This document shows, one piece after another, positions 6,627 through 7,122 of a stretch of DNA of 9,449 bases. Within the stretch, counting starts at the first letter, position 1, and each line of letters begins with the position of its first letter. The DNA is from a virus (taxonomy: Duplodnaviria; Heunggongvirae; Uroviricota; Caudoviricetes). The stretch is from the IMG/VR virus record IMGVR_UViG_2718218100_000013. One strand, written 5' to 3'. The notes beneath the pieces are model-generated. The model was not told the DNA's origin and did not search any database. It saw only the letters and a program-made list of their open reading frames with translations. A program made the translations under genes and the position numbers.

Positions 6627-6722
6627 AGCTACCTCGATACTGTTGCTATCGTTGGTTGTTAGAAGCCCGTTGGTGTTGGTAGCACCTGCGGGCTTTGTCT
6701 TTTCATCGATTACCTCAATAAA

Positions 6723-6804
6723 GGTGTCAGCCACTATACTAGTAACAGGTGTCAGCCACGTCAATAGTGTTTTTCCATTTTCTTGTGTGTATACTGTCAG
6801 CCAC
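6723..6804. promoter_or_regulatory. Three direct repeats of (GG)TGTCAGCCAC in the divergent promoter region, with TATACT -10-like hexamers
   Basis: Copies at 6723-6734, 6748-6759 and 6795-6804. TATACT at 6735-6740 and 6790-6795. Immediately upstream of the ribbon-helix-helix gene start at 6826. Confidence 0.45.
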
Positions 6805-6825
6805 CTAATAACAAGGAAATCAGAT

Positions 6826-7005
6826 ATGGCAACGAAAGCAGTTAATGGAAAATCCAAAAAACTTGAGGCACGAGTCCCCCATGCAATAGCTGACGCCGTA
6901 GAAAATTTAAAGGAAGAAGGCGAAAGCACTGGGCAATTTATCGTTTCGGCACTTGAAGGCGAGATCAAACGCCGCCAGCGCCGCAAGGCCAAAGAGCAGG
7001 AATAG
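6826..7005 (+). CDS. Ribbon-helix-helix (CopG/Arc/MetJ-like) DNA-binding protein, 59 aa; candidate repressor
   Basis: KKLEARVPHAIADAVENLKEEGESTGQFIVSALEGEI fits a beta-strand then two helices with a basic tail. AAGGA ribosome-binding site 8 nt upstream. Only convincing plus-strand gene, divergent from the replication operon. Confidence 0.65.
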   Translation: MATKAVNGKSKKLEARVPHAIADAVENLKEEGESTGQFIVSALEGEIKRRQRRKAKEQE

Positions 7006-7093
7006 TCCACCAGCAAGCCAGCACACTGAGCACATTGCCCACCAGACAGCAAATCGCTATGATGTTCGGGCTTATGTTTAGTGTTTTCCCATT

Positions 7094-7122
7094 GGCGACC
7101 GCCACAGGTCGCCTTTGTTTTA
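7094..7122 (+). terminator. Rho-independent terminator for the ribbon-helix-helix transcript
   Basis: Stem GGCGACC / GGTCGCC with 6-nt loop followed by TTTGTTTTA on the plus strand. Lies between the convergent ribbon-helix-helix and alpA genes. Confidence 0.5.

Follow-up and report, generated by a model that had tools for sequence, protein, structure and literature searches.

In the immI region of phage P22, a ribbon-helix-helix (RHH) repressor is encoded divergently from the operon that it silences, its operator overlaps the promoter of that operon, and an antisense RNA (sar) lies over the ribosome-binding site in the same operon; in P4, P_LL and vis are located upstream of P_LE, with its immunity, and of the alpha operon. 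A locus comparable to both is contained in the IMG/VR virus record IMGVR_UViG_2718218100_000013, a stretch of 9,449 nucleotides (hereafter the window, meaning the whole stretch analysed), which is a phage satellite of about 9 kb, of the type of the phage-inducible chromosomal islands (PICIs) of Gram-negative bacteria, and is identical to a region between clpS and cspD in Shiga-toxigenic Escherichia coli. The subject of this work is the module formed there by a gene for a small protein predicted to be an RHH repressor, three 11-bp repeats upstream of the gene, which are very probably its operators, and a candidate antisense RNA (Table 1).

A preliminary description of the window, made from its letters, had picked out the same gene, for a 59-amino-acid RHH protein, as the sole convincing one on the plus strand, together with three direct repeats, the third overlapping a TATACT hexamer, and a terminator of its own, and had seen in them a compact repressor and operator module. 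These elements are all confirmed: the open reading frame (ORF), the RefSeq annotation, NCBIfam and the register with CopG agree on the gene, exact copies of the repeat and a hairpin followed by a T-run are present at the places given, and the reading as a repressor module gains strong comparative evidence, as far as sequences can provide it, from cognate sites on promoter elements and from their covariation with the protein. The bracketing leftward promoter, P_L, had not been noted, nor had the conserved candidate plus-strand antisense RNA, although the latter lies within the interval described.

Operator-like sites and promoters

The exact 10-mer TGTCAGCCAC occurs three times in the window, at positions 6725, 6750 and 6795, each time within one of the 11-mers termed O1, O2 and O3. 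No fourth match with two mismatches or fewer is found anywhere in the 9.4 kb; the sites are confined to one intergenic region, and the scan of the window finds none at the alpA or int promoters. Related loci were collected from bacterial assemblies at one genome per species (66 loci) and from viral contigs (80 loci), with three further E. coli islands, and 109 of them represent distinct combinations of protein and upstream region. Counted from the ATG of the RHH gene, the window sites start at -102, -77 and -32; three 11-bp GTG-N5-CAC sites likewise precede the gene in nearly every related locus, the first starting at about -100 to -113 and the others at -77 and -32. About 100 related loci repeat this three-site layout, and the offsets are kept across Enterobacterales. 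Judged across these loci, the three-repeat arrangement is far beyond chance.

The sites stand on predicted promoter elements. The leftward promoter P_L is near the consensus, and 87 of the 109 distinct loci have TTGAnn-17/18-TAnnnT in the corresponding position; the -10 hexamer of P_R, the predicted promoter of the RHH gene itself, recurs at -36 to -31 in 78 of the 109, and it is because its first base belongs to TATACT that O3 begins with C in nearly all loci. Since O1 and O2 lie on P_L and O3 on the -10 of P_R, the layout is that of repression combined with autoregulation, and this predicted geometry points to a repressor that would close the leftward promoter and limit its own synthesis. 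O2, which is about 48 bp upstream of the predicted P_R start, could also help P_R, although this is speculation.

The intrinsic terminator at the other end of the transcript is one-directional, the U-run being absent in the minus-strand reading. A terminator-like hairpin on the plus strand is located within 250 nt of the RHH stop codon in 46 of 62 loci, no conserved co-directional partner ORF follows the gene in these 62 loci, and the RHH unit is predicted to be monocistronic, with its own terminator. These data bear directly on the proposal that the protein is the antitoxin of a type II toxin-antitoxin pair, which would neutralize a partner toxin and regulate its own synthesis. The adjacent, co-transcribed toxin gene expected of such a pair was not found, the 59 amino acids leave no room for a toxin-binding tail, and an extra ORF of 57 amino acids, known from some E. 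coli islands, is found neither in the window nor in the majority of loci; this reading is very improbable and was rejected. The extra ORF encodes a basic product (MTDKELTKTLSPARKRRRRK...) and is located after the RHH gene, in the same orientation, in L072 (18243-18416; EcCICFT073), L070 and L071; it is deleted in the window, and it matches PHROG 21027, of 'unknown function'.

As a separate observation, the 15-mer TAGTGTTTTTCCATT, located in the P_R -35 region (6765-6779, plus strand), recurs with one mismatch at 7079-7093, just before the RHH terminator; in a shuffle control for this pattern, allowing up to three mismatches, 14 of 200 shuffles gave at least two matches.

Covariation of protein and probable operator

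The operator arms (GTG and CAC) are constant and the five central bases vary between loci. Across the 109 loci, 27 variants of the beta-strand, taken as the five residues before the invariant arginine, map almost one-to-one on the N5 cores: KKLEA is found with TCAGC (20 of 22), QALKA and QSLKS with TGGCC, KRFDV and KRIDV with TCGGA, QQLNA with AATCG, LQVSV with AACAC, QMTTV with AAATA, QTIAA with TTGAA, and QSVTA with TCTTA. Within one locus the three cores agree, sometimes inverted, whereas between classes the cores differ. In partial Mantel tests, the distance between cores is correlated with the distance between beta-strands both with control for the remainder of the protein (r 0.36-0.41) and with control for adjacent non-operator DNA (r 0.56-0.64), values that none of 2000 permutations reach in either test. 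The best predictors of the core are residue 14 (adjusted mutual information, AMI, 0.76) and residue 12 (0.61), whereas the equally variable positions 27, 31 and 58 yield an AMI of only 0.20-0.30; Ser10 and Arg16 are invariant. In register with Arc (Gln9, Asn11, Arg13), residues 12, 14 and 16 are presumably those whose side chains point into the major groove. The neighbouring genes do not follow the same pattern, as the Xenorhabdus islands have the operator of the window although their AlpA is only 36-45% identical to that of the window, and islands whose AlpA is 57-67% identical have other operators.

The relation was also examined in the opposite direction, by seeking operator pairs by DNA pattern alone in 2.9 million viral contigs. 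Pairs of GTGTCAGCCAC adjoin a KKLEARVP protein in 19 of 20 matches, pairs of GTGTGGCCCAC a QALKARV protein in 13 of 14, and pairs of GTGAATCGCAC a QQLNARF protein in all 21, the predicted protein class being present in 53 of the 55 matches overall. One exception, L180, has no RHH gene within 40-120 nt downstream of the operator pair; the other, L074 (about 10190-10222), is an unrelated, GC-rich viral contig with GTGTCAGCCAC in an iteron-like array of 22-bp period and no RHH gene nearby, and this array is a chance look-alike of the operator. The comparison as a whole supports the view that the protein and the repeats would form a cognate pair. Module copies that reside together in one genome include 0 same-class pairs out of 16, against 1.65 expected (P = 0.17), a difference that falls short of significance and carries no weight here.

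The L074 array, as well as the fact that AlpA is a DNA-binding regulator encoded nearby, could suggest that the repeats are AlpA sites, replication iterons or sites for a host factor, tied to the RHH gene only by physical linkage. This explanation hardly deserves credence, as the core tracks the RHH beta-strand and not the similarity of alpA or icd, the three copies are alike within a locus and different between loci, and the sites are placed on promoter elements and not at an origin; both the iteron and the AlpA-site readings were rejected on the covariation evidence.

The RHH protein and its family

The product of the gene, named 'YlcI/YnfO family protein' in RefSeq (WP_000201464.1), has the N-terminal beta-strand, the two helices and the G-x-S/T turn between them that characterize the RHH superfamily, and profile and model agree in predicting this fold. 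It matches the NCBIfam family NF041551 YlcI/YnfO (YlcI_YnfO_N) over residues 9-50 with 61.9 bits against a cutoff of 30 (E 4.2e-17), hhalign places its family in register with CopG, and the AlphaFold model, a prediction already envisaged in the preliminary description, has a predicted local distance difference test (pLDDT) score of 88; the monomer alone was modelled, and DSSP assigns it no strand, as expected. The protein is a bare 59-residue domain with a basic tail, in which a sensor or any further domain is absent.

Close relatives form 70 clusters, from Escherichia, Salmonella, Proteus, Xenorhabdus, Pectobacterium, Serratia, Yersinia and others, and all are of about 60 amino acids, with an invariant EIKRRQR near the C-terminus. 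The family is small, with 91 representatives (at 50% identity) at E 1e-3 or better among 1.84 billion proteins, and PHROGs labels it 'unknown function'; sequence and profile searches of PDB chains gave no match, and neither did tblastn against 50,697 phage records. Of 5426 complete E. coli genomes, 491 (about 9%) contain a relative of the module at the DNA level, and the module is also listed in capsid-forming PICIs of Enterobacter (PMC13612085).

A candidate antisense RNA

On the strand of the RHH gene, a structured RNA of about 78 nt is predicted opposite the translation start of the icd-like gene. The hairpin at about 6663-6695 is conserved with many compensatory changes, and the plus-strand consensus structure drawn from 29 aligned loci comprises 21 pairs, compensatory changes being seen at 16; of the cells in this alignment, 98.3% are paired when the plus strand is read and 85.7% when the minus strand is, and G.U combinations fill 76 cells and C.A combinations none. 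When the alignment of these loci is made slightly longer (17 pairs), its observed values are reached by 0 of 500 shuffles, and slid controls pair at most 47.5% of cells. The copy in the window has a minimum free energy of -32.6 kcal/mol on the plus strand (z -5.2) against -23.0 on the minus strand. The single-stranded segment UGGUUAGA is invariant or nearly so at each position, the exact octamer being found in 17 of the 29 loci. A covariance model built from these loci, R1, matched 84 of 89 sources (85 matches, including 60 untrained sources and EcCICFT073), always on the RHH strand and nearly always 115-205 nt before the RHH start codon, with E values from 1e-8 to 1e-21. A reading of the hairpin 6663-6695 as a minus-strand mRNA leader, with a possible leader ORF of 15 amino acids, was rejected because the 76 plus-strand G.U pairs would become C.A mismatches.

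The TAnnnT of the candidate promoter for this RNA is invariant at T1, A2 and T6 in the 29 loci and sits seven to eight bases upstream of the predicted RNA start, while the overlapping icd-like codons encode varying amino acids, which suggests that the DNA is constrained as a promoter. Strand, structure, length and position of the predicted RNA would agree with a cis-antisense RNA like SymR, of about 77 nt, covering the start codon and the Shine-Dalgarno sequence of its target and ending at an intrinsic terminator. The Rfam family SymR (RF01809) aligns over its full length in several related loci, with 28.7-37.5 bits, below the gathering score of 61; Rfam scans of the whole window (E 1) and of 6600-6780 (E 10) gave no match to C4, isrK or any other family. 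Taken together, these features are consistent with a putative antisense RNA that would block translation of the icd-like gene, and that probably shares in silencing this first gene of the leftward operon.

In many Xenorhabdus islands (L004-L017, L053, L057-L060), the icd-like ORF, about 190 nt upstream of the RHH gene, is shortened to 41-43 amino acids; its first codons, which overlap the candidate promoter, are still conserved.

Island context and induction by AlpA

The window has the int, alpA and primase genes, the small packaging/capsid module, the size of about 9-12 kb and the chromosomal attachment (att) site by which Gram-negative PICIs are recognized, and its gene order is that of EcCICFT073. 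All genes of the island are leftward except the RHH gene, the sole plus-strand gene inside the island according to RefSeq. The icd-like gene is the first of the leftward operon and is followed by several small ORFs, a DUF4222 gene and the D5-type primase gene. In most related loci, the first leftward ORF is Icd-like as well, its ATG usually 185-200 nt from that of the RHH gene, and this identity was confirmed in 15 loci by tblastn with the Icd-like protein of the window as query; in 39 related loci, alpA occupies the opposite strand downstream of the RHH gene.

Table 1. Positions in the window of the module, its predicted control elements and the neighbouring genes
Feature	Position	Strand	Details
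Small terminase subunit and capsid protein genes		leftward	also in the island
D5-type primase gene	3769-5517	-	
icd-like gene, 67 amino acids	6423-6626	-	NCBIfam phage_ICD_like, E 1.4e-17; RefSeq annotation
Candidate antisense-RNA promoter	6611-6619	+	putative extended -10 TGgTATGAT, inside icd-like codons 3-5
Predicted structured RNA, ~78 nt	about 6626-6704	+	antisense to Shine-Dalgarno sequence and start codon of the icd-like gene
Parts of the predicted RNA	6635-6651; 6662-6696	+	5' hairpin 6635-6651; single-stranded UGGUUAGA; two-tier terminator hairpin 6662-6696, then U-run
Probable operator O1, GTGTCAGCCAC	6724-6734		covers predicted P_L start site; begins 1 base after the P_L -10
Probable operator O2, GTGTCAGCCAC	6749-6759		starts at last base of the P_L -35 and fills the spacer
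Predicted leftward sigma-70 promoter P_L	6764..6736	-	-35 TTGACG 6764..6759; 17-nt spacer; -10 TAGTAT 6741..6736
-10 hexamer TATACT of P_R, predicted promoter of the RHH gene	6790-6795	+	
Probable operator O3, CTGTCAGCCAC	6794-6804		overlaps last two bases of the P_R -10 and the start site
Putative RHH repressor gene, 59 amino acids	6826-7005	+	Shine-Dalgarno AAGGA at 6813-6817
Predicted parts of the RHH protein			beta-strand, about residues 10-18 (SKKLEARVP); helix A, 19-28; helix B, 35-58; invariant tail EIKRRQR
Predicted intrinsic terminator of the RHH transcript	7094-7122	+	hairpin 7094-7113, then TTTGTTTTA
alpA	7140-7364	-	Pfam Phage_AlpA, E 3.4e-16; convergent with the RHH gene, upstream (leftward sense) of P_L
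Gene for 257-amino-acid protein	7456-8229	-	between int and alpA
Integrase gene (int)	8226-9449	-	

Several further observations concern the neighbours of the module. The labels of the icd-like protein clash, being 'transcriptional repressor' in PHROGs (phrog_6196 and phrog_1743) and cell-division inhibitor in NCBIfam. The 257-amino-acid protein matches no Pfam, NCBIfam or PHROGs family; accessory or defence genes are common in this slot between int and alpA in PICIs. Upstream of alpA (7365-7459, minus-strand reading), the palindrome GTGATATCAC occurs twice, at 7429-7438 and 7450-7459, and both copies are followed by a strong terminator-like hairpin (7372-7399) with seven T's, which ends 1 base before the alpA ATG and includes the alpA Shine-Dalgarno sequence in its 3' arm. 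As this hairpin abuts the ATG, transcription of alpA would have to pass through a terminator; it is missing in EcCICFT073 and is therefore not a general feature. The Rfam int-alpA RNA motif (RF02996) is present in one related island (L040, 5910-5975, minus strand; 49.2 bits against a gathering score of 35.8), and the Rfam scan finds no match to it in the window.

EcCICFT073 (CFT073 1,377,930-1,388,654) contains the whole module: an RHH gene (WP_000190587.1) with the beta-strand QALKARVP, the operators GTGTGGCCCAC (O1 and O2) and CTGTCCCCCAC (O3), P_L as TTGACG-18-TATAGT, the antisense RNA as an R1 match, and an icd-like first gene. Its RHH and icd-like genes have locus tags out of series (C_RS30120, C_RS30125) and for this reason are taken to have been added in a later re-annotation. 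In the PICIs of Gram-negative bacteria, AlpA acts as an activator whose gene is turned on by the helper phage, and overexpression of AlpA without a helper results in excision and runaway replication of EcCICFT073 (PMC6092414). The literature search found no paper connecting an RHH protein, or YlcI/YnfO, to the control of PICIs.

The response of EcCICFT073 to AlpA bears on the part of the preliminary description in which the module could act like Stl and be a target for derepression by the helper phage; the RHH protein would then be the single lock of the island, and a helper-phage protein would bind it for induction. Such a master repressor would agree with the position of the RHH gene, which diverges from the replication operon in the way that Stl does from the str/xis operon, with the many specificity classes, which resemble immunity types, and with the report that Gram-negative PICIs have so far yielded no global repressor (PMC6092414). 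Nevertheless, this claim is not supported and, on indirect evidence, is unlikely to be correct, as AlpA alone induces an island that carries the module, the operators are present in one intergenic region and missing from the promoters of alpA and int, the protein consists of little more than an RHH domain, with nothing that could serve as sensor, and no relative of it was found in the phage collection. Since AlpA alone is enough for induction, the switch is probably bypassed, not opened; and as a U-run flanks the RHH terminator on a single side, leftward alpA transcription could continue across the RHH gene.

Proposed mechanism and significance

From the fold, the sites and where these lie with respect to the promoters, the covariation, and the structure and strand of the RNA, we infer binding, repression, autoregulation, the timing of expression and the bypass by AlpA. 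The best explanation overall, and a likely one, is an RHH repressor with three operators and an antisense RNA, bypassed by AlpA. The RHH protein, presumably as a dimer, would bind the three GTG-N5-CAC sites; occupancy of O1 and O2 would block RNA polymerase at the strong P_L of the icd-like/replication operon, and through O3, on its own -10, the protein would limit its own synthesis. The variable 5-bp core would be read by the variable residues 12 and 14, which face the DNA from the beta-strand, and the invariant arms probably by the invariant Arg16. The antisense RNA would provide a second layer, pairing with the icd-like ribosome-binding region and stopping translation of any escaped message, and repressor and RNA together would silence the internal early promoter and a presumably toxic first gene, both in the integrated island and after establishment. 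Induction would take place without removal of the repressor, via the upstream, helper-dependent AlpA route, with leftward alpA transcripts crossing the RHH gene in antisense and entering the operon; the internal promoter would fire mainly on entry into a cell without repressor.

The operator layout fits equally well with a different timing, in which the protein is made mainly after entry or induction and damps the early promoter, in the manner of Arc or Cro, and is not the keeper of quiescence. P22 Arc, a small RHH protein, has such a turn-down role, and P_R, without a -35, may need activation. The RHH gene, however, is divergent from the operon that it would control and not within it, as is the case of Mnt rather than Arc, and an autoregulatory site is typical of steady-state maintenance repressors; a turn-down role is accordingly considered rather unlikely, and maintenance of repression is preferred.

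Several points weigh against the proposed repressor, operator and RNA system. Because the gene and the sites are adjacent, shared descent alone would yield some association, and part of the covariation is shared ancestry of adjacent, linked sequences; the Mantel tests, the residue-specific prediction and the shuffled neighbours nevertheless go beyond linkage, at the level of sequence comparison. The Pfam family RHH_1 (PF01402, CopG family) gives no match to the window protein at E 0.1, and of 26 homologs one reaches E 0.009, below the gathering threshold; Foldseek returned nothing significant for the model. One dimer per 11-bp site is an assumption, and P_R has no recognizable -35, only a T-rich upstream tract. 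The promoter and ends of the RNA are predictions, and the window's own copy is unmatched by Rfam SymR at E 10 (6600-6780). The argument for read-through from alpA is solely the absence of a good minus-strand terminator, and weak terminator-like hairpins, antisense inside the RHH coding region and at a homologous place in the window (6864-6881, minus strand) and in L072 (18605-18625, plus strand), could limit such read-through or be by-products of lysine codons.

A broader reading, possible but on balance doubtful, would make the RHH protein and the SymR-like RNA the missing immunity system of Gram-negative PICIs, capsid-forming ones included; the two dozen or more orthogonal classes would be heteroimmunity groups deciding whether satellites coexist or exclude each other, and loss or titration of the repressor, by convergent alpA transcription or a helper factor, would be a physiological route of induction. 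Apart from this, a concrete candidate repressor, its putative operators and a partner antisense RNA can now be named in EcCICFT073, where no repressor was identified, and the question of a PICI repressor becomes directly testable with existing strains and reporters. The analysis also offers a first functional reading for the YlcI/YnfO family, and about 27 natural pairs of small putative repressor and operator, differing mainly at two residues and five base pairs, which may be useful for the recognition rules of RHH proteins and as orthogonal parts for synthetic circuits. RHH repressors and their operators are a well-known kind, and this module is of value for its location and because its natural specificity variants form an unusually clear series.

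Comparison with known systems

YlcI (prophage DLP12) and YnfO (Qin) of E. coli K-12 belong to the same NCBIfam family as the RHH protein, and YlcI is 22% identical to it, in register, over the RHH domain. The ylcI gene (L173, 6252-6446) adjoins cos of the lambdoid prophage DLP12 and is divergent from nohD; at this locus there is no R1 match and no obvious set of three operator sites.

With Stl of the Staphylococcus aureus pathogenicity islands and Rpr of Gram-positive PICIs, the module has in common that a phage-inducible island encodes a putative repressor divergently from its replication operon. Stl, however, is a helix-turn-helix protein, and neither a domain of that type nor a C-terminal sensor is found in the 59 residues of the RHH protein; in addition, no helper anti-repressor is in evidence, and the excision and activator genes appear to lie outside the reach of the module's repressor, which AlpA alone overrides in EcCICFT073.

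The candidate RNA resembles SymR of the SymE/SymR system, as the alignment to RF01809 shares AGYCAU at the 5' end, GUGRUUAG and the terminator loop GUGUUGNCGCAC; the predicted target here is an icd-like protein instead of SymE, no LexA control is evident, and by score the RNA is only distantly SymR-like. In immI of P1 (c4 RNA-icd-ant), as predicted for the module, control begins with an icd-like gene whose translation start is the target of an RNA of about 77 nt, but C4 is cut from the transcript of its own target and acts by loop-target pairing. The Rfam models for C4 and isrK, immunity RNAs of the P1/P4 type, do not match the module RNA.

The likeness to P4 concerns map position and logic: an AlpA/Vis-family gene and its promoter are located upstream, an internal early promoter would be under immunity, and a primase operon lies downstream. 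Immunity in P4 depends on a processed sense-strand RNA, CI, which causes premature termination, in contrast to the protein repressor and cis-antisense RNA predicted here; the CI RNA of P4 is mentioned in PMC10111431.

Compared with P22, the module differs in having three separate 11-bp sites instead of one 17-bp operator, in an operon of icd-like and replication genes instead of an antirepressor, and in belonging to a satellite and not to a phage; its protein of 59 amino acids is without the tetramerisation domain of Mnt, to which it has no detectable sequence relation (hhalign E 0.16). The likeness to immI of P22 extends, nevertheless, to each of its three elements, as the module too has a divergent gene for a predicted RHH repressor, probable operators on the promoter of the operon, and a candidate antisense RNA over the ribosome-binding site.

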